NCBI RefSeq assembly: GCF_044324875.1 | Contig: NZ_CP172185.1 | Source: Escherichia coli | GTDB lineage: Bacteria > Pseudomonadota > Gammaproteobacteria > Enterobacterales > Enterobacteriaceae | DNA length: 64,000 bases | Reading direction: 5' to 3' (one strand) | Shown: in pieces, positions 38,289 to 50,826 of the stretch | Layout: each line of letters begins with the position of its first letter | Position numbering within the stretch: position 1 is the first letter of the stretch | The notes under the pieces: model-generated | What the model was told of the DNA's origin: nothing | Database searches by the model: none | What the model saw: the letters and a program-made list of their open reading frames with translations, nothing else | Translations under genes and position numbers: made by a program

Positions 38289-39410
38289 TTACCCTTCGAA
38301 GAACCAATACCCGCTATTGACCAGCGCCGCGAGCATCGCGAGGAATGACGGATCTTCCAGCGCATCGCCAAAATTCTCCGCAGTCAGCGCAATGTTGCTG
38401 GCGAGTGCATCCAGTGCCGGACGGTGCGGGGAATCGATCTTCTCACCATTGGCATACACGTCGTCGCCAATGCGCAATACGCGCAGACCACCCAGACGCA
38501 CCAGCACTTCACCTTGTTTCAGCGCATCGTAGATTTCATCCGGCTGATAAGGCGGCTCTGGCGGCGCGATATCCAGTTCATGGCGTGACTGGGATATAAA
38601 CTCCCCAAACCATTGCTTAAAGTGTTCCGGCTGGTTGATCAATTCGAGCATCATCTCACGCAGTTTATCCATCTCTTGCGGCAGAACATCCGCAGGATGA
38701 GCGCGAGGTGAAACATCAGGATCGCTGTAGTAGTTGCCGCCCAGTTCACGTTGCAGCACATAATCGGCAAATCCGCTAATCAGTTCCCGCGTATTTGGTG
38801 CGCGAAAACCGACGGAATAGTTCATCGCATTTTCCAGCGCGTAGCCTTCATGGGGGAATCCTGGCGGAATATAAAGAATATCGCCTGGCTCCAGTTCTTC
38901 ATCAATGATGGCTTCGAACGGATCAACCTGTAACAGATCCGGGTGCGGGCAGTGCTGTTTCATTTGCAGCTTTTCGCCCACTCGCCAGCGACGACGTCCG
39001 GTACCCTGAATGATAAACACGTCGTACTGATCGAGATGCGGGCCGACGCCGCCGCCAGGTACAGAAAAAGAGATCATCAGATCATCAATACGCCAGTCCG
39101 GTAGTTCACGGAACGGTCGCATCAGCGCGGCGGTCGGCTCATGCCAGTGGTTCACTGCCTGCACTAACAATGACCAGTTAGTTTCACCGAGATGATCGTA
39201 GCTTTCGAACGGGCCGTGGCTGACCTGCCATTTGCCATCCTGGTGGCTGACCAGTCGACTGTCGACTTCGCTTTCCATCGCCAGACCCGCCAACTCGTCT
39301 GGAGAGATCGGGTCAATAAAATTATTAAAGCCGCGTTTTAACACCACCGGACGTTTCTGCCAGTGACGTTCAAGAAAATCGGGCCAGTTAAGAGTGAGTT
39401 GGTATTCCAT
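38289..39410 (-). CDS. roxA: Ribosomal oxygenase RoxA (YcfD), JmjC/cupin family
   Basis: 373 aa from MEYQLTLNWPDFLERHW; synteny with pepT. Confidence 0.9.
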   Translation of the reverse strand: MEYQLTLNWPDFLERHWQKRPVVLKRGFNNFIDPISPDELAGLAMESEVDSRLVSHQDGKWQVSHGPFESYDHLGETNWSLLVQAVNHWHEPTAALMRPFRELPDWRIDDLMISFSVPGGGVGPHLDQYDVFIIQGTGRRRWRVGEKLQMKQHCPHPDLLQVDPFEAIIDEELEPGDILYIPPGFPHEGYALENAMNYSVGFRAPNTRELISGFADYVLQRELGGNYYSDPDVSPRAHPADVLPQEMDKLREMMLELINQPEHFKQWFGEFISQSRHELDIAPPEPPYQPDEIYDALKQGEVLVRLGGLRVLRIGDDVYANGEKIDSPHRPALDALASNIALTAENFGDALEDPSFLAMLAALVNSGYWFFEG

Positions 39411-39611
39411 GTTAAGCATCCACAGGCTGGTATCTGCAACCGATTATAACGGATGCTTAACGTAATGCGTGAAGTATGGGCATACTTTATCAATTAGTGT
39501 TTTTTGCCGTTTCATAATGTTTCAGGTTGTGCATTATGTTTTTGATTATAAACAAATTTGTGATTTTTCTTGTTCCAGCTTGTTTCACGTTGTAGCCCTT
39601 TGTGCAACGAT

Positions 39612-39637
39612 CGGTGTAGTTAATGGTGTAGTTAATT
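39612..39637 (+). repeat. attL core: 26-bp direct repeat cggtgtagttaatggtgtagttaatt
   Basis: Identical copy at 50721-50746; itself contains an internal tandem gtgtagttaat duplication. Confidence 0.8.
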
Positions 39638-40888
39638 GTGATGACCGGATTCAAAATTATGAGCAGAGCACTTAACAAGCTGAGCGATACACAGCTAAGG
39701 AAAATCAACGGCACACCCGCCCAAAAAACAGCCTTTCTTAATGACGGTGGAAACTTGAGCGTCAGGCATTCAACCAGCGGCCTTTTAACCTGGTATTTCA
39801 CTTACAGGGCCGGAACGGGAAGGGGGGCATCACCGGAACGCATTAAGCTGGGAAATTATCCTGATCTGAGCCTGAAATCAGCCAGGGAAAAAGCCGCCCA
39901 GTGTCGCGCATGGCTGGCTGAGGGGAAAAATCCACGTCATGAGATGAATTACACCGTACAGGAAGCGTTAAAGCCTGTAACGGTTGGCGATGCGCTCACC
40001 TACTGGCTTGAGTCGTACGCAAAGGAAAACCGTGTGGATTATGACCCACTGAAAAAGCGGCTAAATAATCACGTAATACAGCACATTGGCCCTATGCCGC
40101 TGGATAAATGCGAGCTACGGCACTGGCTGGCCTGTTTTGATCGGGTGGCAAAGCAAGCCCCTGTTTCCGCCGGGTTCCTGCTACAGACATGCAAACAGGC
40201 GCTTAAGTTCTGCCGGAAGCGGCGCTATGCAATCAGCAACGTTCTTGATGATATGAGTGTGGCTGACGTTGGGAAAAAACCGGATATAGGCGAACGTGTC
40301 TTAAGTACCAAAGAACTGGGCGAATTATTGCAGGCACTGGACAAAAAAATATTTTCCCCTTACTACGTCGCACTAATCCGCCTCCTGATTGTTTTCGGAT
40401 GCCGGACAGTAGAACTGAGGTTATCGGAGATCGGCGAGTGGGATTTTACCGAAATGCTCTGGACCGTTCCGAAGGAGCACAGCAAAACGAAGGTAGCCAT
40501 ATTCCGGCCCATACCGGAAGCGATACTGCCGTTCGTCACGCAGCTGATGGAGCAGAACAGGCACACGGGCTTATTGCTGGGGGAAGTGAAACAGGAAACC
40601 AGCGTGTCGCAGTACGGCAGATTAGTGCACAGGAGGCTTAAACACCCTCACTGGTCACTGCATGACATCCGGCGCACCTTTACAACGATGCTGAACGATT
40701 TAGGCGTGGATCCTCACGTCGTGGAGCAGCTTACAGGCCACCAGATGCCAGGAATGCAGCGAGTTTATAATCATTCCCGTTATCTGGATGCGAAACGCAA
40801 TGCGCTGGATATGTGGACGGAGCGGTTAGGGATACTGGCGGGAGCACATGAAAACGTAACCACGCTACCAGTAACCAGAAGAAAATAA
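39638..40888 (+). CDS. int: Tyrosine-type site-specific integrase (P4-like family)
   Basis: C-terminal catalytic signature (…HDIRRTFTTML…GHQMPGMQRVYNHSRYLD…); true start possibly at MSRALNKLS (39659). Confidence 0.85.
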   Translation: MMTGFKIMSRALNKLSDTQLRKINGTPAQKTAFLNDGGNLSVRHSTSGLLTWYFTYRAGTGRGASPERIKLGNYPDLSLKSAREKAAQCRAWLAEGKNPRHEMNYTVQEALKPVTVGDALTYWLESYAKENRVDYDPLKKRLNNHVIQHIGPMPLDKCELRHWLACFDRVAKQAPVSAGFLLQTCKQALKFCRKRRYAISNVLDDMSVADVGKKPDIGERVLSTKELGELLQALDKKIFSPYYVALIRLLIVFGCRTVELRLSEIGEWDFTEMLWTVPKEHSKTKVAIFRPIPEAILPFVTQLMEQNRHTGLLLGEVKQETSVSQYGRLVHRRLKHPHWSLHDIRRTFTTMLNDLGVDPHVVEQLTGHQMPGMQRVYNHSRYLDAKRNALDMWTERLGILAGAHENVTTLPVTRRK

Positions 40889-40937
40889 TTTTTTTCGTGT
40901 TTTTTCAGTATGCGCATACTGGATAAGTGCACAGATA

Positions 40938-40969
40938 CAACGTGAAACAATAAGCAACAACGTGAAACA
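40938..40969 (+). repeat. Two direct copies of CAACGTGAAACA (candidate integrase arm-type or regulator binding sites)
   Basis: Copies at 40938-40949 and 40958-40969; inverted copies tgtttcacgttg at 39581-39592 (near attL) and tgttccacgttg at 50690-50701 (near attR). Confidence 0.5.
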
Positions 40970-41262
40970 ACCACGAACAAGAGGTCAAAAAGTATACAGA
41001 TTTATAAGTTGCTGATTTTTAATGCTCAACTGGTTTTTTATACATTAGCGAATAACGCTTTAAATAGTGAGAAAAAAGTCATAAAACGAGATTTTATGCC
41101 TTTGCATAATACTGAATTAAAATGATTTTTATTAAAATCACCCCGTTTCTGTAAAATACCCGCCACCAACATTTGCCAACTCTGAATCACCCTGACACAA
41201 TCAGACACATCCCAACGCAATAGAACACGAAATAACTCTTTAAGAAACGAAAGGGGGCAATA

Positions 41263-41451
41263 GTGTTAAGCACTGATCGGTTTATACGTGAAAAAGAATG
41301 CGAAAAGCTAACAGGCCTTAGCCGCTCATGCCGCTACCGCCTGGAAAAGGCCGGACAATTCCCATCACGGCGTAAGCTGGGCGGTCGTTCCGTTGGCTGG
41401 TCTTTATCCGAAGTTCTGGCATGGAAGGAAAGCTGCGAGGCAGTTCACTAA
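41263..41451 (+). CDS. AlpA/Xis-like small DNA-binding protein
   Basis: 62 aa; ...KECEKLTGLSRSCRYRLEKAGQFPSRRKLGGRSVGWSLSEVLAWK matches AlpA-type wHTH. Confidence 0.7.
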   Translation: MLSTDRFIREKECEKLTGLSRSCRYRLEKAGQFPSRRKLGGRSVGWSLSEVLAWKESCEAVH

Positions 41452-41777
41452 AAAGACTGGCGGCACACAGCCGCCACCCATCCACTAATACAGAGATTTA
41501 ACCATGAAGACTGGATATACGCCCGAACAGGGGCGGGGCTTCGTTCGGCCTGGTGAAACTGAAAAACAACAAAATCGCGGTTTTTCAGGCATAAAAAAAG
41601 CGGCCCCGATAAGGAGCCGCCTTTCTGAACAATTAACCTACAGCGCAAAAAATGAATCTGAGCAGTGGGATTATATCAACCGTGCAACGAAGCGCCACAA
41701 TTGCCGGATAACGGGCAAAGAAAAGGCCACCTGTCACGGTGGCCAATGTGATCAGTGTGGTGGCTTGCTGGTGGCTA

Positions 41778-41969
41778 TCAACCTTTGGGTTCTATACCGC
41801 GCCGCTTTAGTTCAGCGCGCCCCAACTCTTTAAGCCAGTTGGCTAGGCTTATGCCGTCGCTCTGCGCTTCTTTGTCGAATTGCTCTTTTAGCTCTGGAGA
41901 AATTCGCATTCTGAATTGTGGGGATTGCCCATCACCCTTAGGGCTTTTATCACGTTTGATTGTTGACAA
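41778..41969 (-). CDS. Arc/MetJ-type ribbon-helix-helix DNA-binding protein (candidate island repressor)
   Basis: 63 aa; FRMRISPELKEQFDKEAQSDGISLANWLKELG; transcribed divergently from the replication operon. Confidence 0.55.
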   Translation of the reverse strand: MSTIKRDKSPKGDGQSPQFRMRISPELKEQFDKEAQSDGISLANWLKELGRAELKRRGIEPKG

Positions 41970-42103
41970 GTGGTCACCTATTAAATTAGCCTTTCTATTG
42001 TTAGGTGGTCACCTTAACACGGGGACACTTAAAAAAGCAAAGCCCGAAGGCGCTAGGAACACCAACGGGCTTCTAACCACAAACCGTTATGAGAGGTAGT
42101 TTT

Positions 42104-42301
42104 ATGGCTGTAAGACAGCATACCCCACGACTAGCGCACACACAAACCGCCTTTGTGTGGCGTTTTCTGGCACTGAGTGCCGGAGAATCTCAAATCATCC
42201 ACGTAACCGCCTGGACGGAACGCGAAGCGCGTAGCCGTTGCCCGTCCGGTTGTGTTGCTGTATTCGCCGCCCGTATTCGTCAGGGGGTGTACCATGATTA
42301 A
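42104..42301 (+). CDS. Small hypothetical protein, first gene of rightward operon
   Basis: 65 aa from ATG 42104 with RBS gagagg; unknown family. Confidence 0.45.
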   Translation: MAVRQHTPRLAHTQTAFVWRFLALSAGESQIIHVTAWTEREARSRCPSGCVAVFAARIRQGVYHD

Positions 42302-42662
42302 CCTGTCACTTACCGATCTTAACCGCGTTCAGTTTCGTGAGAAATTTACCGGACAGCTACTCGTCAATGTGGAGAACGGGCGCATAGTGCGTAATTATCA
42401 CCTGCCGGATGGTGCAATTGCCGGAAGCGTTGAAGCATTGCTGGAACTGGCGGAACGTGCGCGACTGATTAAGCCGTCAACGAGCCATCACGATGATGAT
42501 CTGCATTTTACCGGATGTATGGTGAGTCACTACGAAAACGGCGTCGAGGTATCCTGCGAACGGCTGCGTGATGATTGCTGTTTCGGCACACTGCCGGAAT
42601 TTATCGAATTGCTGACCAGTTGCGGATATCAGGTTATTCAGGGGGTGCGCCATGTGCAATAA
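42294..42662 (+). CDS. Hypothetical protein (122 aa)
   Basis: Start MINLSLTDL overlaps upstream gene end; unknown family. Confidence 0.5.
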   Translation: MINLSLTDLNRVQFREKFTGQLLVNVENGRIVRNYHLPDGAIAGSVEALLELAERARLIKPSTSHHDDDLHFTGCMVSHYENGVEVSCERLRDDCCFGTLPEFIELLTSCGYQVIQGVRHVQ

Positions 42663-43107
42663 CATCCGTCCGGACGCAGCAGGCGAAGCCATCATAACGC
42701 TAATGCACGCGCTGATTGATATTTCATGCACGGCAGCAACCGCAGAAAAACACATTACCAGAGAGCCGGAATATACAGGGGCAATAATCCCGCATTCGCT
42801 GGCCTACGCACAGCTAACCGCTGATATGGCGCTGAATGAGGCTAAAGCCATCCTGATTGCTGATTGTGAAAATGGGGGGGGGGTTATGCGTGATGATCGT
42901 TTTAATTCCCTGAAACAGGAATTTTCCGGCGTTCCTGATAATGCGGCTGATGCGCTTTCGTCAATATCTGAAATTATGCGGGTGGCTTTTTTCTTTCTTT
43001 GCACTGATGAGCACAGGGATACAGGGCTAAATATTCTTGATATCGCCGCTAATTATGCTGATTTCGTAACGGAAACTGTTTTAAGAAAAACGACGGACGG
43101 GGATTAA
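42652..43107 (+). CDS. Hypothetical protein (151 aa)
   Basis: Overlapping start with previous gene; unknown family. Confidence 0.5.
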   Translation: MCNNIRPDAAGEAIITLMHALIDISCTAATAEKHITREPEYTGAIIPHSLAYAQLTADMALNEAKAILIADCENGGGVMRDDRFNSLKQEFSGVPDNAADALSSISEIMRVAFFFLCTDEHRDTGLNILDIAANYADFVTETVLRKTTDGD

Positions 43108-43108
43108 T

Positions 43109-43342
43109 ATGCGTGATATTTACCACGAAACAATAGACCGCGCATTTCTTGCACTTTCTCACAGTGAAAATATGTTGGAAATATTGCGCATATGTCTTGA
43201 AACGCTTGGAGATAATGAACGTGATAAACAGAAATCAATGATTGTCACGGCATTAATAACGCTTCTTGAGCCTGTAATAAATGAGTTGCAGGAAATAGAG
43301 ACATTACACGACCAGTATAAAGCGCCCCACACCGGAGAATAA
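43109..43342 (+). CDS. Hypothetical protein (77 aa)
   Basis: Tightly packed in operon; unknown family. Confidence 0.45.
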   Translation: MRDIYHETIDRAFLALSHSENMLEILRICLETLGDNERDKQKSMIVTALITLLEPVINELQEIETLHDQYKAPHTGE

Positions 43343-43347
43343 AAAAC

Positions 43348-43635
43348 ATGAAAAATAAAAATTCTGGCGTTAATGCCAGCGGCCCCGCTCGTCCTGAAAT
43401 CCGTCCCGGCGATATTTTCCGTGATAACTACGGCGGCACGGTAATGATTAAGGGCGTGGAAGAACGGCGCGTAACCTACCGCCGTGATGGCTACGAATAT
43501 GACTGCGTTATGCCTGTTTATCAGTTCCGGCGTGATTTCACGCTGGTGGGCCATCGTAAAGCCGTTAATCAGAAACGTGCTGCAAGTTATATCCGCAAAA
43601 TCCGTGAAATGCTGGTCGCAGGGGGTAAGAAATGA
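43348..43635 (+). CDS. Hypothetical basic protein (95 aa)
   Basis: Overlaps helicase gene start (ATGA); unknown family. Confidence 0.45.
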   Translation: MKNKNSGVNASGPARPEIRPGDIFRDNYGGTVMIKGVEERRVTYRRDGYEYDCVMPVYQFRRDFTLVGHRKAVNQKRAASYIRKIREMLVAGGKK

Positions 43636-45038
43636 AACTTGCACCGAACGTAAAACTGTTACCGAAAGATAAACACACTGAGGCGGTTATTTTTGCGGGT
43701 GATAATGCTCACTCCTTTGCAGAACATTACATGATTGCACAGGCCAAAAAAGCAGGCGATCCCATCCCTCCGGTTTACCTGGGCCGTTATCAGTTAAGCG
43801 AACTGGACAACTTACAGATTGTTGATGAAGGACGATACAGGGCAAAGGTCATACGCGCCGGAAACCTGGACGATATGCAGATGCTGACCATTGCCACAAA
43901 ACTGGCGATCGCCGGAGTCCAGGAGGCGCGCCTACTTTCTGAAAATTTCGAACTGCTGGAGGACTGGAGCGACCAGCTACCACGACTACGGGAAACATGG
44001 GAGAGAGGGGAAAGCCTGGTCATGAATGGCGGAAAGCGAAAAATCACACTTCCCATCTCATGGGGTTCTGAGGGATTCGATGCGCAGCAAAGCTACGTCA
44101 TTAAGGGGCTTATTCCGGCTGAGTCATTATGCAGCACCTACGGGGCCAGCGGTTCTTATAAATCGTTCCTCGCCATTTCCTGGTCGTGCCATGTTGCCAC
44201 AGGTATGGCATGGGGAGGCCGCAGGGTAAGTAAGGGTGCGGTTATCTATATCGCTGGCGAAGGCAGCATGGGCGTAAAACGCCGCGTTAAGGCGTGGGAG
44301 ATAACCCACGACAAGGTGGTTACAGATTTGTGCATCATTAACGCGCCTGTTTTCCCTGCATCGCCTGACTATGTGGAGCAGGTTATCAGGACTGCCGGAC
44401 TTGTTAAGAGCAGAACGGGCGAAAATGTGCGGCTGATTGTGATCGACACGCTGGCCCGTTGCTTTGGTGGGAATGATGAAAATGATTCCCGTGATATGGG
44501 CGCATTTATCCAGGGGTGTGACGCGATAAAGCAGGCCACAGGGGCCACGGTGCTGGTGGTTCACCATTCCGGCAAGGATGAAACAAAGGGGGCGCGTGGT
44601 TCCAGTGCATTCCGTGCCGCGCTTGATGCAGAGTACCGAATCAGCCGCGAAAATTCAGACGTTACAGCACTGGTCGCAGCATGTACGAAGATGAAGGACG
44701 CAGAGGAGCCAAAAGAGAGCGCATACGACCTTAAAAGCGTGGAGGTGTTCACCGATACAGATGGCGAAGAAATTGTGTCCATGGTGGTGATTGACGTTCC
44801 CCGCGCCCCTGCTGAACTGGAGCGCATCGAGGAGGCAGGCAACAAGACGGAAAACCATACCGCGCTATGGGGGTGCATCCGTTCACGCACACAGAACGGC
44901 GACAAGTGCACGATCCCGCTGTTACGTGATGACATGAAACGGCTTGGGTATGACGTGAAAAATATGCGGCGATGGTTAGCCAAACTGGAAAAAGACGCCG
45001 TGATTTACATTGATGGTGATGATGTAGGACCACTGTAA
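43632..45038 (+). CDS. Replication protein, RecA-fold P-loop ATPase/helicase (RepA/DnaB-like, satellite pri-rep position)
   Basis: 468 aa; P-loop-like YGASGSYKS, Walker-B-like LIVIDTL, followed immediately by iteron cluster. Confidence 0.7.
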   Translation: MKLAPNVKLLPKDKHTEAVIFAGDNAHSFAEHYMIAQAKKAGDPIPPVYLGRYQLSELDNLQIVDEGRYRAKVIRAGNLDDMQMLTIATKLAIAGVQEARLLSENFELLEDWSDQLPRLRETWERGESLVMNGGKRKITLPISWGSEGFDAQQSYVIKGLIPAESLCSTYGASGSYKSFLAISWSCHVATGMAWGGRRVSKGAVIYIAGEGSMGVKRRVKAWEITHDKVVTDLCIINAPVFPASPDYVEQVIRTAGLVKSRTGENVRLIVIDTLARCFGGNDENDSRDMGAFIQGCDAIKQATGATVLVVHHSGKDETKGARGSSAFRAALDAEYRISRENSDVTALVAACTKMKDAEEPKESAYDLKSVEVFTDTDGEEIVSMVVIDVPRAPAELERIEEAGNKTENHTALWGCIRSRTQNGDKCTIPLLRDDMKRLGYDVKNMRRWLAKLEKDAVIYIDGDDVGPL

Positions 45039-45238
45039 AAAGTGAGTAGTAAAAGTGAGTAATGGTGAGGTTTTTACAAAATATTAACACAATTACTCAC
45101 TTTCTCACCTGTATACATGCTCAAAAGTGAGCAGTGAAAAAACACTTATGAAACATGCACATATAAAACACAAAAATCTCAAGTGAGACGAAGTGAGACG
45201 CTTTAAAAAGTGAGTAGTAAAAGTGAGAGATGGTGAGC
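45037..45238 (+). repeat. Iteron cluster, putative island replication origin
   Basis: Multiple aaaagtgag / ggtgag repeats in both orientations around an AT-rich spacer (tttttacaaaatattaacacaatta), directly downstream of helicase gene. Confidence 0.65.
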
Positions 45239-45239
45239 A

Positions 45240-45608
45240 ATGAATAAAAACCGAACAGCAGGACAAAATACCGAAGGTAAATTTATGAACACTGAAATTG
45301 AAACACTGAGCATATCAACTGCCCTTCCTGGCTGGTGGGCTAAGTTCAAAGACGACGACGGCACGGAATGGTATAGCCCAATTGCTGCATGGGCGCTTTG
45401 TGATATCCACCATTTCGGCACCGGAGATACTTACCGCGAAATCTTACCCGTGCTGACCAGTGAGCTGGGCATGAGTCCGCATAGTCCTGATGAGGGAATG
45501 TGCGAGTGCCTTTATCTGCCGGATAAGAAGTTTGTTCACTGTGGTGAATCGATGGTATTTGCCTGGTATCCGGTTAACGACAGCAGCAATAGCGGTACTC
45601 TGGAGTAA
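45240..45608 (+). CDS. Hypothetical protein (122 aa; alternative start at 45285)
   Basis: ORF after ori; unknown family. Confidence 0.45.
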   Translation: MNKNRTAGQNTEGKFMNTEIETLSISTALPGWWAKFKDDDGTEWYSPIAAWALCDIHHFGTGDTYREILPVLTSELGMSPHSPDEGMCECLYLPDKKFVHCGESMVFAWYPVNDSSNSGTLE

Positions 45609-45611
45609 ATC

Positions 45612-45854
45612 ATGAAGGTAAACCACAAAAAGACAGATCACCGCGCCATTGACCTTACAGAGCACTGGCTGAGGGTGGCGATAAAAATCATCGACCGCAA
45701 CACGGGGGAAGGATACGCGAAAGCACATCCCGAACTGATAAGTGCATTCATGACCACAGCGGCGGCAAACTTTGCCACGCTGACAGAGCGGGATATTGCC
45801 GAAGCAGAACAGGTAACAACCATCAACGTTAAAACCAGTGAGGTGGAATCATGA
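45612..45854 (+). CDS. Hypothetical protein (80 aa)
   Basis: ORF overlapping ssb start; unknown family. Confidence 0.45.
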   Translation: MKVNHKKTDHRAIDLTEHWLRVAIKIIDRNTGEGYAKAHPELISAFMTTAAANFATLTERDIAEAEQVTTINVKTSEVES

Positions 45855-46261
45855 CAGCACAGATAGCGGCTTACGGGCGGCTGGTGGACGACCCGCAGGT
45901 AAAACAGACCAGTAAGGGTACACCGATGACGCTGGCGCGTATGGCGGTATCTTTACCATGCGGCCAGGCACAGGACGGACAGGCGACGTTATGGTTATCG
46001 GTCATCGCATTTGGCAAACAGGCCGACTTTCTGGCTAAACATCAAAAAGGCGACGTTGCCAGCGTATCCGGCACGATGCAGGTCAGCCAGTGGACCGGAC
46101 AGAACGGGGAAACGCGGCAGGGTTATCAGGTTATTGCAGACAGCGTAATCAGTGCCCGTGCGGCACGTCCTGGCGGGAACAGACGCAAAACCACAGGCAC
46201 ACAGGGTAATCAGCCACCAGCGGGAGGCGATGACCCTTACGGTGATGATATTCCGTTCTGA
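45851..46261 (+). CDS. Single-stranded DNA-binding protein (short SSB)
   Basis: 136 aa OB-fold-like with Gly/Pro-rich tail ending in acidic DDIPF, as in E. coli SSB. Confidence 0.7.
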   Translation: MTAQIAAYGRLVDDPQVKQTSKGTPMTLARMAVSLPCGQAQDGQATLWLSVIAFGKQADFLAKHQKGDVASVSGTMQVSQWTGQNGETRQGYQVIADSVISARAARPGGNRRKTTGTQGNQPPAGGDDPYGDDIPF

Positions 46262-46271
46262 GGGGGTGACG

Positions 46272-46544
46272 ATGGTACATGACCGCATAGCGGAGGAACT
46301 CGAGGCAAAAGGATTTTACCGGAGGGCGGCGGCGCGATGGGGTGAAGTTATGAGGCTGGTGAGCACTGACAAGGAGCGCGAACAGGTGGCAATGCGACGG
46401 CTGGAATGTTCCCTGAAGGCACAGAGGCCACCGGAGCCGCCGGATGATTTAGGCGCTCTGAAAAGGTCAGTTAATCGCACTGAAAAACAAATGGGGATAG
46501 CTGGTATTGGCAAAGCAATATGGCGCAACTACCCGCAGAAGTGA
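46272..46544 (+). CDS. PerC-family transcriptional regulator homologue
   Basis: 90 aa from MVHDRIAEELEAKGFYRRAAARW (RBS aggggg); resembles PerC/Pch family N-terminus as remembered. Confidence 0.55.
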   Translation: MVHDRIAEELEAKGFYRRAAARWGEVMRLVSTDKEREQVAMRRLECSLKAQRPPEPPDDLGALKRSVNRTEKQMGIAGIGKAIWRNYPQK

Positions 46545-46551
46545 GCACACA

Positions 46552-46573
46552 GCCGGAGCAATCCGGCTTTTTT
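46552..46573 (+). terminator. Rho-independent terminator after perC-like gene
   Basis: gccgga-gcaa-tccggc followed by tttttt. Confidence 0.7.
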
Positions 46574-46585
46574 ACGCCTAAAAAA

Positions 46586-46622
46586 AGCCCGATAAGGTCA
46601 AAGGGGGCTTATCGGGCTTTTG
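46586..46622. terminator. Second hairpin, possibly bidirectional terminator
   Basis: 11-bp stem agcccgataag / cttatcgggct flanked by A-run and T-run. Confidence 0.5.
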
Positions 46623-46784
46623 TAGAGGAGGTTTTTTATGGTGCACTGGCACACATGATCGGGATAATCATTTCATAATTTGCAACATAACTCAATATTG
46701 TTGCGCAAAATGCAATCATGATTATAATCAGGACTGGATGAACATCCAGTTATGATTTTTTAAGTCAAAGAGGAATTTCTGACT

Positions 46785-46991
46785 ATGGCAGAAGAGAAAA
46801 AAGGCGGGGTGACGGTCTACATAAGCCCCGACATCGTGGAGGCGCTCAAGGAACGCCACCAGCAGAATGTAAAAGCAGGCATTGCGGCAGGACTTGATCC
46901 GCTGGCGATGGTTGAGCCGTCAACAGGCTGGCAGGTGCGTACCTATTTACGTGCGGCGCTGGGTATCAATCAGGTTCACGGAGGTGAATAA
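46785..46991 (+). CDS. Small hypothetical protein preceding capsid gene
   Basis: 68 aa; stop overlaps capsid gene ATG. Confidence 0.45.
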   Translation: MAEEKKGGVTVYISPDIVEALKERHQQNVKAGIAAGLDPLAMVEPSTGWQVRTYLRAALGINQVHGGE

Positions 46992-48046
46992 TGACAGGCA
47001 AAGCAAAGGCACTTACAACTAACCAGCTTTTCGCGTACCTGAATCGCGGGGATATTTCGGAATATAAATTTAGTCCGCTGTTTACCACGCTGTTTTTCCC
47101 GAACGTGGCGACCTTCAACACCCAAAACATCATGCTGGACACCCTGGACATTGAAGAGGTTACGATGTCAGCGTTCTGTTCTCCTATGGTGGGTAGTCAG
47201 GTCCAGCGCGATAAAGGGTACGAAACCAGCACGATTAAACCAGGCTACATGAAGCCAAAGCACGAAATCGATCCAACAAAGACCATCATGCGCATGGATG
47301 GAGAAGATCCGGCACAGCTTAACGATCCAACTTACCGCCGTATGCGCCTGATTACTGGCAACATGCGCCGCCAGATAAACGCCATTAAGGCGCGCGTGGA
47401 ATGGCTGGCGGTGAATGCGGTAACGACCGGAAAAAACATCATTGAGGGCGAAGGCATAGAACGCTATGAAATCGACTGGAAAATACCGGAAAACTGCATC
47501 ATACAGCAGGCCAGTGGTAAAAAATGGTCCCAGCAGGATAAAGACATGCACGACCCAATCTATGACATCGAGCTTTATGCTGATCAGGCAGGTTGCCCCG
47601 CCAACGTCATGATTATGGGCGGTGAGGTATGGCGCACATTACGCAGCTTTAAAAAATTCCGTGAACTGTACGATCTTTCCCGTGGATCAGAATCCGCCGC
47701 CGAGCTGGCCTGTAAAAACCTGGGCGAAGTGGTGAGCTTTAAAGGCTATCTTGGTGATCTGGCCCTTATCGTCTATTCCGGCAAATACACTGACAGCGAC
47801 GGGACCGAAAAATATTTCCTTGAGCCTGATTTGCTGGTCCTGGGTAACACCAACAATAAAGGGCTGGTGGCATATGGTGCGATTATGGATCAGGAAGCGG
47901 TAAGAACGGGCGCAACGCAAAACATGTACTACCCGAAAAACTGGATTGAGGACGGCGATCCGGCGATTGAGTACGTGCAGACGCACAGCGCACCGCAGCC
48001 TGTACCGGCAGATATTCGCAAATTTGTTACCGTCAAAATTGCTTAA
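46991..48046 (+). CDS. Lambda gpE-family major capsid protein homologue
   Basis: 351 aa; collinear similarity to lambda E (KFSPLFTTLFF / KFDPLFLRLFF; PGYMKPKHEI / PGYVKPKHEV; DPTYRRMRLI / DPAYRRRRII; YYPKNWIEDGDPAIEY / RYPKNWVTTGDPAREF). Confidence 0.8.
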   Translation: MTGKAKALTTNQLFAYLNRGDISEYKFSPLFTTLFFPNVATFNTQNIMLDTLDIEEVTMSAFCSPMVGSQVQRDKGYETSTIKPGYMKPKHEIDPTKTIMRMDGEDPAQLNDPTYRRMRLITGNMRRQINAIKARVEWLAVNAVTTGKNIIEGEGIERYEIDWKIPENCIIQQASGKKWSQQDKDMHDPIYDIELYADQAGCPANVMIMGGEVWRTLRSFKKFRELYDLSRGSESAAELACKNLGEVVSFKGYLGDLALIVYSGKYTDSDGTEKYFLEPDLLVLGNTNNKGLVAYGAIMDQEAVRTGATQNMYYPKNWIEDGDPAIEYVQTHSAPQPVPADIRKFVTVKIA

Positions 48047-48057
48047 CGGGGGATTCT

Positions 48058-48393
48058 ATGGACGCTCCATACATTGAGTTATTTTCAGGCAGCCAACAGG
48101 TATCCACGACGCTGGTACATTTTGCCGCTGATGCTGGCGTTATTCAGGAATTTACCCCGCTGATGCTGGCAGACAATGGCGAGTTTAAGCCGTGGGATGG
48201 TAAGGAATCTGGCAAGGCTGTTTATCTGACCTCGTACCCTGTGGACACGTCAAAGCAGAAATCAGCACAGTGTTACAAGACGGGGATATTCAATATTGCC
48301 GCCGTTAACTGGCCTGACAGCGTCGACACCGATGCGAAAAAATGCGCCGCCTTTGCGGGTTCCGGCGTATCCGTTCAGCCGCTGGCCCGATAA
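48058..48393 (+). CDS. Lambda gpD-like head decoration protein homologue
   Basis: 111 aa; C-terminal GIFNIAAVNWPDSVDTDAKKCAAFAGSGVSV parallels lambda D [32 protein letters not shown]. Confidence 0.7.
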   Translation: MDAPYIELFSGSQQVSTTLVHFAADAGVIQEFTPLMLADNGEFKPWDGKESGKAVYLTSYPVDTSKQKSAQCYKTGIFNIAAVNWPDSVDTDAKKCAAFAGSGVSVQPLAR

Positions 48394-48467
48394 GCAGGGG
48401 GAACGATGGCACAAACCAGGGCGATGACGGCGACATCTATCGCATACTGAAAACCATCTGAGACAAG

Positions 48468-48490
48468 GCCGGAGAAATCCGGCTTTTTTT
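48468..48490 (+). terminator. Rho-independent terminator after decoration gene
   Basis: gccgga-gaaa-tccggc followed by ttttttt; near-duplicate of terminator at 46552. Confidence 0.7.
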
Positions 48491-48492
48491 GC

Positions 48493-48620
48493 GGGTCCTT
48501 TCCGGCATGTGGACCCGTTACGGGGCGTCGACCTCGCACGTTTTCGCTATTTATGAAAATTTTCCGGGAAAAAGCATGTCAGTTCTTCTTGTTATTAACA
48601 TATTGTTTTTAAAGAAATAA
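48493..48620 (+). promoter_or_regulatory. Lambda-type cos site (cosQ/cosN/cosB-like) upstream of terS
   Basis: gttacggggcgtcgacctcgcacgttttcgctatttatgaaaattttccgg closely matches remembered lambda cos (gttacggggcggcgacctcgcgggttttcgctatttatgaaaattttccgg); putative cosN gggcgtcgacct at 48523-48534. Confidence 0.75.
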
Positions 48621-48710
48621 CTATCAAGAAAGAAACGACATCATAATGATGAAAAATCTGTTTTTTTTGGCATTTCATGTCGTAACTGATTTTTGATAAG
48701 GAATTGCTGA

Positions 48711-49295
48711 ATGAATGTTAATAAAAAGAGGCTTGCCGAAATTTTTAACGTGGACCCGCGGACGATTGAACGCTGGCAGTCACAGGGGCTTCCTTGCGTC
48801 TCCAAAGGCAGTAAGGGCATTGAATCTGTATTTGATACTGCCATGGCAATTCAGTGGTATGCGCGGAGGGAAACTGATATCGAAAACGAAAAGCTCCGCA
48901 AAGAACTGGACGATTTGCGTGCGGCAGCGGAGTCAGATTTACAACCCGGCACCATTGACTATGAACGCTATCGGCTCACAAAAGCGCAGGCAGATGCGCA
49001 GGAACTTAAAAACGAGCGCGATCGCGGTGACGTGATTGATACAGAGTTTTGCATGTACGCGCTTTCAAAACTGGCGAGTCAGATTTCATCAATCATGGAC
49101 AGCCTCCCGCTTACTATGCAAAGGAGCTTCCCACAGATGACCCCCGCCATGCTGGATGGCCTGAAAAAAGAAGTTGTCAGAGCCTGTAACGCATGCACAA
49201 AACTTGATGAAAACATCCCGCGAATGCTGTCCGATTATCTGATGGAAACTACCGGAAATGTGCCTGATAAGTTTCAGCCGGATAAAGACAAGTAA
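48711..49295 (+). CDS. Terminase small subunit, lambda Nu1-like
   Basis: 194 aa; [28 protein letters not shown]...[29 protein letters not shown] parallels lambda Nu1 (MEVNKKQLADIFGASIRTIQNWQEQGMP...[29 protein letters not shown]). Confidence 0.85.
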
Positions 49296-49536
49296 CGTAG
49301 TGCACAATGACCGAAGCCAGTTTACTGACTGGCTTTCAGCGTTGCGCTGGTGGGCGTTATGCGTCAGTGATAAACGTCTCCAATATTACTGATATTCGAC
49401 ATCCCCACCTCTCCACACCAGCTCGAATATCATTTTTCTCATTAAAAACAGGACATTAAAAACTGGTCAGATGTCCCATAAAAAGCCAAATGGGACAGGT
49501 CAAAAGCTTTTTTTGCAGTAATTTTCAATAGGTTAC

Positions 49537-49935
49537 TTGATGTGGTGGTGTCCCATGAAAATTCAAAAATCAGCCGTTTTCCGCGATGCTCCCGCCCCGT
49601 GGCAGGGCACCCCACAAGGAGGACCCGCCATCACTATGGAGGACATGACCATGACCGAGACCGAAGCGCTCGGGATAATCCGCAGTATTACCGGAATCAG
49701 CCAGCAGGCTGGCGAACAGGAGGCCACGCAGCCGGACAGCGTGATCGCCGAAAATTACGTGCGTGTTGTTGCTGATGTAATGCGCCGTGATGGTATTGAG
49801 CTTAACGGCGTGGATATGCGCGACATACGAATCAGAGTACTAGAGTTGCTGGCATACCGTCGACGCGTGGCGATGTATCAGGAGAGCGCGAAAAACACTT
49901 ATCAGTGGAAGAAGCCGGAGCGGTTACGGCGGTAA
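49537..49935 (+). CDS. Hypothetical protein downstream of terS (likely shorter, start near 49651)
   Basis: ORF of 132 aa; RBS ggagg favours ATG around 49651 giving about 95 aa; unknown family. Confidence 0.4.
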   Translation: MMWWCPMKIQKSAVFRDAPAPWQGTPQGGPAITMEDMTMTETEALGIIRSITGISQQAGEQEATQPDSVIAENYVRVVADVMRRDGIELNGVDMRDIRIRVLELLAYRRRVAMYQESAKNTYQWKKPERLRR

Positions 49936-50290
49936 CTGGTTGATATTTTCGAAATTCGCCAGCGGCGAACATCGGGGAAACCAGCCTAACCAGTTGATTC
50001 TTTCGGAAACAGCCATTGGCGGAATCCGGCGCGGTAACTTGCTGATATTCCCGATAACGCAAAATTGCGCTGGCTACATCCCTCACATCTGAGGACTGAT
50101 AATGCGACATTGCGCTGGCTGGCAAAGTGCAAAATTGCACGATGGCCTAACCCATTGATTATTTCGAAAACCTGCAATGCAGGAAATCGGGGAAGTAAGC
50201 CTAAGCTATTGATTCTTTCGGAAACCTCAATTTGAGGAAGTCGGCGCGGTAACTCGCTGAACTTAAAGCAAACCTCAAAATTGAGCTGGC
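49932..50290 (+). repeat. Array of four degenerate repeats of a ttgattctttcggaaac-like motif with associated short palindromes
   Basis: Motif variants ggttgatattttcgaaat (49938-), cagttgattctttcggaaac (49991-), cattgattatttcgaaaac (50154-), ctattgattctttcggaaac (50205-); cggcgcggtaact at 50028 and 50242. Confidence 0.6.
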
Positions 50291-50720
50291 TGAATAATCA
50301 TTATGATTACGCAGATGATTAAGGAATGACCGAAGGCGGAAATTCGCCTGTGGTTGATGGGGGAGTTGCAGATCTGCAACTCGACCATGAAACTACGGAA
50401 ACTACCCGTAGTTTGGGTAGTAAGAGTAACACCCAGATTTTGGGACTTACTCGTGATACCCAAATTTGGAGTATCGGTGGCAACCATAACGACTTTCGTT
50501 ACGGTTGATGCTTTTACCCCATTGGGGGAAAGGTATTACGATAATCATAACACCTACCGAACAGGTAAAGCCCACCAGCCTGATTGACATTTAACCGGAA
50601 AAAAAGCCAGGTAGCCCCGTTATGTGGATCCCCATATCGACAGCAACGCCCCCTTAAAATTACCCGCCTTTATATTTCTTGTGCCTATTTGTTCCACGTT
50701 GTTTCATACAGTGCGCCGAA

Positions 50721-50746
50721 CGGTGTAGTTAATGGTGTAGTTAATT
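50721..50746 (+). repeat. attR core: second copy of 26-bp direct repeat
   Basis: cggtgtagttaatggtgtagttaatt identical to 39612-39637. Confidence 0.8.
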
Positions 50747-50826
50747 TGCGATTTTTGGCACTTTTGTTTGTGTATATTTTTAATTAAATCAATACATTAA
50801 CTAATATCGGTGATAAAAGGGCATAT

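Follow-up and report, generated by a model that had tools for sequence, protein, structure and literature searches.

We analysed a 64,000-nucleotide stretch of an Escherichia coli chromosome (contig NZ_CP172185.1; hereafter the window), in which an integrated island of 11,341 bp sits between roxA (38289–39419, minus strand) and phoQ (50827–52287, minus strand), at the 3′ end of phoQ. Alignment with E. coli K-12, in which the roxA-phoQ site is empty, placed the junctions at a 7-bp core, GGGCATA, that is duplicated at the island ends; the left copy (attL) lies at 39478–39484, and the right copy (attR) lies at 50819–50825, where it directly adjoins the phoQ stop codon. In agreement with these ends, a near-identical island in TUM1886 aligned to window positions 39484–50800. 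The same chromosomal site is used by EcCICFT073, the prototype of the Gram-negative cos phage-inducible chromosomal islands (PICIs), described by Fillol-Salom et al. in 2018 and 2019. An earlier, sequence-only reading of this DNA had set the limits of the element at 39612 and 50747, but these positions are the inner ends of a 75-nucleotide imperfect direct repeat within both arms. The left copy (39563–39637, plus strand) ends in the doubled motif GGTGTAGTTAAT and is 79% identical to the right copy (50672–50746), and each lies ∼80 bp inward from its junction; the repeat may be an arm-type binding site for the integrase. A 25-bp repeat considered as the attachment site was ruled out by the empty-site comparison and corresponds to the end part of the 75-nucleotide repeat. 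All assigned genes of the island but one lie on the plus strand, according to the list of open reading frames (ORFs).

The island encodes a pair of head proteins. The first gene (46991–48046, plus strand) specifies a 351-amino acid homologue of the lambda E family of HK97-fold major capsid proteins (phrog_29, E 2e-108), which is 95% identical to c1499 of EcCICFT073, 46% identical to E of CFT073 phage 4, and 43% identical to lambda E over 343 residues. It matched Protein Data Bank (PDB) entry 3BQW ("putative capsid protein of prophage") over all 351 residues (E 5e-229) and the lambda capsid 7VI9 (E 4e-81). The second gene (48058–48393, plus strand) encodes a 111-amino acid homologue of the lambda D/phage 21 SHP family of head decoration proteins (phrog_49, E 1e-26); it is 96% identical to c1500 and matched PDB entries 1TD0 and 1C5E. 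In EcCICFT073, c1499 and c1500 have been described as a putative capsid protein and a head decoration protein, respectively (PMC6092414). Immediately upstream is a 68-amino acid ORF (46785–46991, plus strand; phrog_3255) whose stop codon shares one base with the start of the capsid gene; its product is 93% identical to the corresponding EcCICFT073 protein. A hairpin resembling an intrinsic terminator (46551–46578, plus strand) precedes this operon, and a repeat search found a second copy downstream of it (48463–48489, plus strand), whose counterpart on the upstream side spans 46547–46573. The two hairpins (GCCGGAGnAATCCGGC followed by a T run) are near-identical and flank the 68-amino acid ORF-capsid-decoration operon on both sides, suggesting that it is a separately controlled transcription unit. 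The segment 46650–46770 contains a TATAAT box and inverted repeats.

Purifying selection acts on both the capsid and the decoration gene. Pairwise ratios of nonsynonymous to synonymous substitution were 0.08–0.18 for the capsid gene and 0.12–0.27 for the decoration gene, compared with 0.13–0.26 for int and 0.03–0.24 for ssb. All nine capsid genes compared were intact (346–351 amino acids), and a decoration gene adjoined the capsid gene in each of the nine islands. The 68-amino acid ORF-capsid-decoration cassette was found in 597 of 5,426 complete E. coli genomes (∼11%), always at full length. More distant capsid homologues, with identities of 68% (Salmonella), 63%, and 55%, were each carried by an island of this type in Salmonella or E. 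coli, laid out as int-alpA-DUF4222-rep, ssb in most, capsid, decoration, and then Nu1 or a 146-amino acid ORF; one of these islands lies within the E gene of a prophage. The closest phage capsid protein in a collection of 50,697 records was at most 47.5% identical to the island protein, which indicates that the pair is a long-standing satellite lineage and not a recent capture.

Downstream of the pair lies a cos site (48493–48689, plus strand). Alignment with the cos sites of lambda, phage 21, CFT073 phage 4, and PICIs identified cosQ (GGGTCCT; 48493–48499, plus strand) and a cosN, GGGCGTCGACCT (48523–48534, plus strand), which is one base off lambda cosN and is separated from cosQ by 23 bp, as in lambda. 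The cosB region, compared with the annotated phage 21 cos site of OL657228.1, is of the phage 21 type; R3 (∼48572–48587), a site for integration host factor (∼48596–48608), R2 (∼48630–48645), and R1 (∼48673–48689) occur at phage 21 spacing and with the phage 21-type core. A second cosN, as in EcCICFT073, was not found in the window.

The gene that follows (48711–49295, plus strand) encodes a Nu1-like small terminase (TerS) of 194 amino acids (phrog_57, E 4e-68) that is 53% identical to lambda Nu1 and is a mosaic. Residues 1–99, comprising the winged-helix DNA-binding domain and the linker, were 96–100% identical to the phage 21 and CFT073 phage 4 proteins, and the DNA-binding domain matched PDB entries 7LWR and 6HN7; residues 100–194 were 100% identical to TerS of the TUM1886 island. 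Compared with phage 21 and lambda, identity was 41–51% over residues 100–140 and 32–39% over residues 141–182, and no phage in the 50,697-record collection matched the C-terminal half at more than 56% identity. The gene is likewise recombinant at the DNA level: 48568–48983, covering cosB and codons 1 to ∼91, was ∼85% identical to phage 21 and CFT073 phage 4, and the remainder (48983–49295) was 98.8% identical to the TUM1886 island. We found the same C-terminal half in five PICI TerS proteins whose DNA-binding halves are of different types, namely a 180-amino acid class and a 194-amino acid lambda/21-like class with several alleles, and this half was present in 657 of the 5,426 complete E. coli genomes (∼12%). 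From this mosaic structure we infer that oligomerisation and contact with the helper motor or the helper TerS fall to the conserved half and that the DNA-binding half is swapped together with cosB as a cassette, here with a phage of the phage 21 type. In one E. coli relative (L009, 12138–12722), a 194-amino acid Nu1-like terS lies on the strand opposite the rest of the island.

Between the decoration gene and cos, tblastn with c1501 of EcCICFT073 detected the last 18 codons of a c1501-like gene (48405–48458, plus strand; residues 120–137, 89% identity). Approximately 350 bp have been lost here relative to the related islands; blastn against TUM1886 and CFT073 placed the deletion junction at 48403–48411, where the alignments to relatives overlap by 9 bp. 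The gene is called a "head-tail connector" in some genomes. An EcCICFT073 derivative with a c1501::tetA insertion was still transferred (PMC6092414), and thus the deletion need not disable the island.

The left part of the island encodes integration, regulation, and replication functions. A tyrosine integrase gene (39659–40888, plus strand; phrog_1, E 3e-73) is followed by a gene for an AlpA-family regulator/excisionase (41263–41451, plus strand; phrog_2790, E 1e-17), and both products are 95% identical to their EcCICFT073 counterparts; without AlpA, EcCICFT073 is not induced (PMC6092414). The single minus-strand gene (41778–41969) encodes a small Arc-like protein (phrog_228, E 5e-7), and the matching region of EcCICFT073 holds a small minus-strand YlcI/YnfO-family gene that gave no significant blastp match to it. 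Downstream are an Icd-like small protein (42089–42301, plus strand; NCBIfam NF033153, E 5e-18) and three small early ORFs of 136, 151, and 77 amino acids (42252–43342, plus strand) that matched PHROGs without known function. These three form a variable cassette, and 42301–43357 was unlike the TUM1886 island at that stretch by blastn. A PADLOC search with ten small island ORFs returned no defence match.

A DUF4222-family protein (43348–43635, plus strand; phrog_285, with PF13973 detected on the same-position gene in relatives) precedes a RepA-family (AAA_25) replicative helicase/initiator (43632–45038, plus strand; phrog_2850, E 2e-187). The helicase was 100% identical to TUM1886 RepA, and only its residues 1–126 matched the CFT073 primase, with 46% identity. 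In the interval that separates the helicase gene from the following ORF, a repeat search and direct reading of the sequence revealed (A/G)GTGAG iterons around an AT-rich core (45033–45237); this stretch is a putative replication origin, and it occupies the position 3′ of the rep gene that is typical of PICI origins (PMC6092414). Two small ORFs then precede ssb (45851–46261, plus strand; phrog_44, E 2e-40; TIGR00621), whose product, a single-stranded DNA-binding protein (SSB), is 98.5% identical to that of EcCICFT073. The last gene before the first hairpin encodes a PerC-family regulator, 90 amino acids long from an internal ATG (46272–46544, plus strand; phrog_994 and transcriptional-activator PHROGs), which is 72% identical to the PerC-family protein of EcCICFT073.

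Beyond terS, the island contains one further gene, conserved in the family, for a 94-amino acid protein (49651–49935, plus strand; phrog_1561, E 4e-49) that was 100% identical to the TUM1886 counterpart and 73% identical to the CFT073 counterpart. Searches with the 68- and 94-amino acid ORFs gave no significant Pfam or PDB match, and the 94-amino acid ORF gave none in PADLOC; a BrnA-antitoxin assignment for a small ORF in these searches was a weak match (E 0.36) and was not counted as evidence. The remaining ∼880 bp form a noncoding right arm (49936–50818) with a duplicated 113-nucleotide segment (49933–50045 and 50148–50260; 74% identical), three copies of a 23-nucleotide motif, many short palindromes, and the right copy of the 75-nucleotide repeat. 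An Rfam search across the whole island, including this arm, gave no match at E ≤ 0.1.

We next considered which head and tail genes are absent. Neither the ORF list nor PHROGs nor tblastn revealed a portal, large terminase (TerL), protease, or tail gene in the 64-kb window, and the longest island ORF does not exceed 468 amino acids. When the window was searched by tblastn with Nu1, A, W, B, C, Nu3, D, E, FI, and FII of lambda and CFT073 phage 4, only homologues of Nu1, D, and E matched. The sequence-only reading had described an integrative satellite of the PICI type with a lambda-type cos, a Nu1-like TerS, and full-length E and D homologues but without portal, TerL, protease, and tail genes, and our searches bore out this description in each respect: the cos site is present, every gene that it listed is present and intact, and neither a nearby portal or TerL gene, which it had named as a sign of a decayed prophage, nor a truncated gpE or gpD homologue was found.

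The island has the features of a Gram-negative PICI. It carries an integrase gene at its left end and a specific attachment site, has alpA after int and most of its genes on one strand, and encodes a replication initiator of its own that appears to be followed by an iteron origin; at 11,341 bp it falls within the ∼10–20-kb range and lacks tail, lysis, portal, and TerL genes; and its packaging module consists of a helper-type cos with TerS or Rpp (here TerS), accompanied by the optional capsid-morphogenesis gene. Capsid morphogenesis and TerS are among the five core components of PICIs (PMC10085698). Helper-dependent induction, packaging, and high-frequency transfer, together with interference with the helper, are known for EcCICFT073 only (PMC6092414, PMC6739421).

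Three other types of satellite share some of these features. Capsid-forming PICIs (cf-PICIs) such as EcCIEDL933 are likewise integrative and have int, alpA, a replication module, a capsid gene, and TerS, but they are described as encoding all proteins for their own small capsids and for DNA packaging, including head-tail adaptor and connector genes (PMC10085698; 10.1101/2022.09.08.507074), which we read as implying portal, protease, and TerL. The complete head module is absent here; the island has capsid, decoration, and TerS homologues only, and tblastn across the 64 kb gave no hit to lambda A, B, C, Nu3, W, FI, or FII. Satellite phage P4 is also ∼11 kb long, integrative, and cos-packaged by a helper and has AlpA-like and Icd-like genes. 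However, when every island ORF was scanned against PHROGs and NCBIfam, none matched the Sid, Psu, Delta, or alpha primase-helicase families, and the cos site is of the lambda/21 type and not the P2 type; PICIs and P4 have been argued to have evolved independently (PMC6092414). Finally, packaging redirection of the Rpp type, by RppA, RppB, or RppC, involves 139–154-amino acid winged helix-turn-helix proteins that lack the C-terminal TerL-binding region of TerS and lie beside a cos site without phage R sites, whereas the 194-amino acid TerS of the island aligns with Nu1 over its full length and only 47 of its residues match RppA, at 28%.

Among the relatives, EcCICFT073 shares the roxA-phoQ site and the gene order with the island, and the Int, AlpA, SSB, 68-amino acid ORF, c1499, and c1500 products are 93–98.5% identical, as is the cosQ-cosN region at 93%. 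The two elements differ in that EcCICFT073 has a D5-type primase in place of the RepA-type helicase, keeps c1501, of which only 18 codons are left here, and has two cos sites instead of one. EcCICFT073 also combines RppA (144 amino acids) with a cosB devoid of R sites, and the present island combines its 194-amino acid TerS with a phage 21-type cosB containing three. EcCIIHE3034 and the TUM1886 island share the layout int-alpA-rep-ssb-68-amino acid ORF-capsid-decoration-cos-TerS-94-amino acid ORF. The TUM1886 island is 97–99% identical over most of its length, with a C-terminal TerS half that is 100% identical. EcCIIHE3034 is integrated at cspD-clpS and the TUM1886 island at tqsA, and both keep c1501, unlike the island here. 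Their TerS proteins have 180 amino acids and a PICI-specific DNA-binding half that is 27–29% identical to ours over residues 1–68. The integrase of the TUM1886 island was 94% identical, and its junction core in tqsA (L001, 2990–3010 and 13990–14015) is ATAACAGCA, compared with GGGCATA here, indicating that the choice of site differs between near-identical elements.

These comparisons bear on the claim of the sequence-only reading that the island is an undescribed intermediate between PICIs and cf-PICIs, and this claim does not hold. A capsid and decoration pair 95–96% identical to the one here is present at the same locus in EcCICFT073, a major capsid gene is carried by 21 of 29 reference Gram-negative PICIs, and transfer does not require it (PMC10111431). 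EcCIIHE3034, in which we found the order int-alpA-primase-ssb-68-amino acid ORF-capsid-decoration-c1501-TerS-94-amino acid ORF, with a primase where the present island has a RepA-type helicase, was catalogued in 2018 as an island that "encodes TerS" (PMC6092414); the architecture has therefore been in the literature since 2018. The island is instead a new mosaic of known modules. Its exact combination of modules occurred in no complete E. coli genome: only one place covered at least 80% of the island, and no genome covered 80% of the decoration-cos-terS-94-amino acid ORF stretch.

Taken together, the whole is best explained, and very probably correctly, by a PICI of the EcCICFT073 family that is packaged by a helper through its own cos site, with a mosaic TerS and a capsid pair whose products would enter the shell. 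By analogy with EcCICFT073, a lambdoid cos helper would switch on alpA, the island would then excise and replicate from its own origin into concatemers, and the terminase, portal, procapsid, and tail of the helper would package island DNA cut at the island cos. A lambda-type head of normal size would be filled by four copies of the island, whose combined length of 45.4 kb is ∼94% of that of the lambda genome; the packaging limits of lambda are roughly 78–105% of genome length. The mosaic suggests that TerS would bind the phage 21-type cosB through its phage 21-type DNA-binding half and that its PICI-specific C-terminal half would engage the helper packaging motor or the helper TerS. The combination of a phage 21 DNA-binding half with a matching cosB predicts prophages of the phage 21 type as helpers. 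In EcCICFT073, induction depends on alpA and on the helper, and transfer requires cos and the phage terS (PMC6092414).

Several observations weigh against this explanation. No helper prophage lies within the 64-kb window, neither at icd nor on the left side. After mitomycin C treatment of its own strain, EcCIIHE3034 yielded only <1 to 40 transductants per ml (PMC6092414, Table 1), and TerS-type islands may need helpers other than those known so far. The part of TerS equivalent to the TerL-binding region is only 32–39% identical to phage 21 and lambda, so direct recruitment of the helper TerL may not be assured. The LH50-c and ECCNB12-2 islands carry a ProQ/FinO-family gene in place of the 68-amino acid ORF-capsid-decoration cassette, which indicates that the capsid module is dispensable for the family. 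In addition, no experiment has assigned a role to the capsid and decoration homologues. In islands at the cspD-clpS site, the ProQ/FinO gene lies between the PerC-like gene and cos-terS (L016, 9399–9983; L017, 9964–10548).

We favor a structural role for the capsid and decoration homologues, in which they would become part of shells built by the helper and their effect would depend on the helper or on conditions. Lambda gpD binds only the expanded shell lattice, and the retention of a matched decoration partner therefore suggests that the island capsid protein enters the shell. Experiments with EcCICFT073 have shown that deletion of c1499 or c1500 changes neither transfer nor interference with lambda, that a c1499::cat island is transferred with phage 80 at up to 10^6 per ml, and that island DNA packaged with lambda is phage-sized throughout (PMC6092414).

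An alternative is that the E and D homologues do not build shells for the island but are interference or hedging factors, which would co-assemble with competing lambdoid phages, titrate the assembly partners of such phages, or serve as a spare copy when the helper E is disrupted or limiting. Long conservation in the absence of any transfer phenotype fits such a role, and a backup function has been proposed (PMC10111431). Helper-embedded relatives sit within the helper E gene and carry an E homologue of their own. One of these, PICI 11capE (PMC10111431), has the family layout and, like our island, encodes E and D homologues and a Nu1-like TerS, but it lies inside the E gene of its helper prophage, whereas the island here occupies a chromosomal site with no prophage nearby. 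Identities of 43–46% to helper E proteins also leave functional replacement uncertain. As for interference, deletion of c1499 or c1500 did not relieve it, and of the genes beyond the origin, c1503 (rppA) alone blocked lambda when singly expressed (PMC6092414; PMC6739421). We regard this alternative as possible but unlikely.

A second alternative keeps the shell as the target and looks to a natural helper yet to be tried, for example a prophage of the phage 21 type that matches the island cosB. The island would then be a shell-only satellite whose E/D pair replaces or dilutes the helper shell on the helper portal and scaffold, possibly with a change in size; in parallel, the PICI TerS would be a third route of packaging hijack beside Rpp and the TerS plus Ppi of Staphylococcus aureus pathogenicity islands (SaPIs), and it would join a conserved C-terminal half to DNA-binding half/cosB cassettes exchanged with helpers. 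Taken as a joint proposal, this appears rather improbable.

The sequence-only reading had offered a more specific model, in which the E- and D-like proteins build small shells on a helper portal and scaffold that fit only the 11-kb island, so that the element would represent a shell-only stage between PICIs and cf-PICIs. Both genes are of full length, conserved, adjacent, and under purifying selection, as such a model would have them. There is also precedent for satellite-encoded homologues of a helper HK97-fold capsid protein, since Ccm of SaPIbov5 resizes heads and PmCI172, which has a capsid homologue, makes small capsids (PMC6092414). In the EcCICFT073 family, by contrast, size redirection was not seen and the capsid gene had no phenotype: with a capsid protein 95% identical to the one here, EcCICFT073 packaged phage-sized DNA with lambda, and transfer survived both the deletions and the c1499::cat insertion, leaving the small-capsid model without support in the closest relative. 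Moreover, tblastn detected no scaffold, protease, or portal gene in the island. We consider this model quite improbable.

A decayed lambdoid prophage, stripped of most of its genes, would account for the lambda-family Nu1, E, and D homologues and the cos site, but it is almost certainly not the explanation, because the compact layout (∼11 kb in E. coli) with intact genes recurs at several sites in E. coli and Salmonella, the capsid gene precedes the decoration gene with both upstream of cos-terS, unlike the lambda order, the capsid protein is no more than distantly related to any phage capsid protein (the 47.5% ceiling given above), the replication module and alpA are of satellite type, and the closest relative has been mobilised at high frequency in experiments (PMC6092414).

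The remainder of the window holds chromosomal genes and other mobile elements. In its left part, gdhA and ynj genes (540–8181) are followed by a CP4-like island (∼8.4–26.7 kb) with a CbtA/YeeU toxin-antitoxin pair and antirestriction, DUF932, GTPase, and YadA-like adhesin genes, and then by IS3 (26734–28048), a DinI-like gene, IS66 (30019–32352), an alpha/beta hydrolase gene, and potB-potA-pepT. This adjacency, in 1–34770, is unlike the K-12 map and points to a rearrangement associated with an insertion sequence or an island. A helper prophage was sought in these left 35 kb and rejected, the region being accounted for by gdhA-ynj, the CP4-like island, and insertion sequences. On the right, homology to CFT073 stops at 58944, and 58944–64000 proved free of a prophage at icd, where CFT073 carries the helper of EcCICFT073. 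In E. coli genomes that match this stretch, the annotation up to 64000 gives IS3 and IS200 transposases, ycgX, bluR, and bluF; a helper prophage downstream of icd was likewise rejected, as this region holds only IS3, ycgX, bluR, and bluF.

The element type, the capsid and decoration homologues, and the TerS/Rpp module have been in the literature since 2018–2019 and are represented in satellite-finding software. What the island adds to is a puzzle of the family: a capsid and decoration pair without a laboratory phenotype is nevertheless intact, selected, and carried by ∼11% of complete E. coli genomes as well as by Salmonella. Why this pair is conserved is a real question, and one that was already known.

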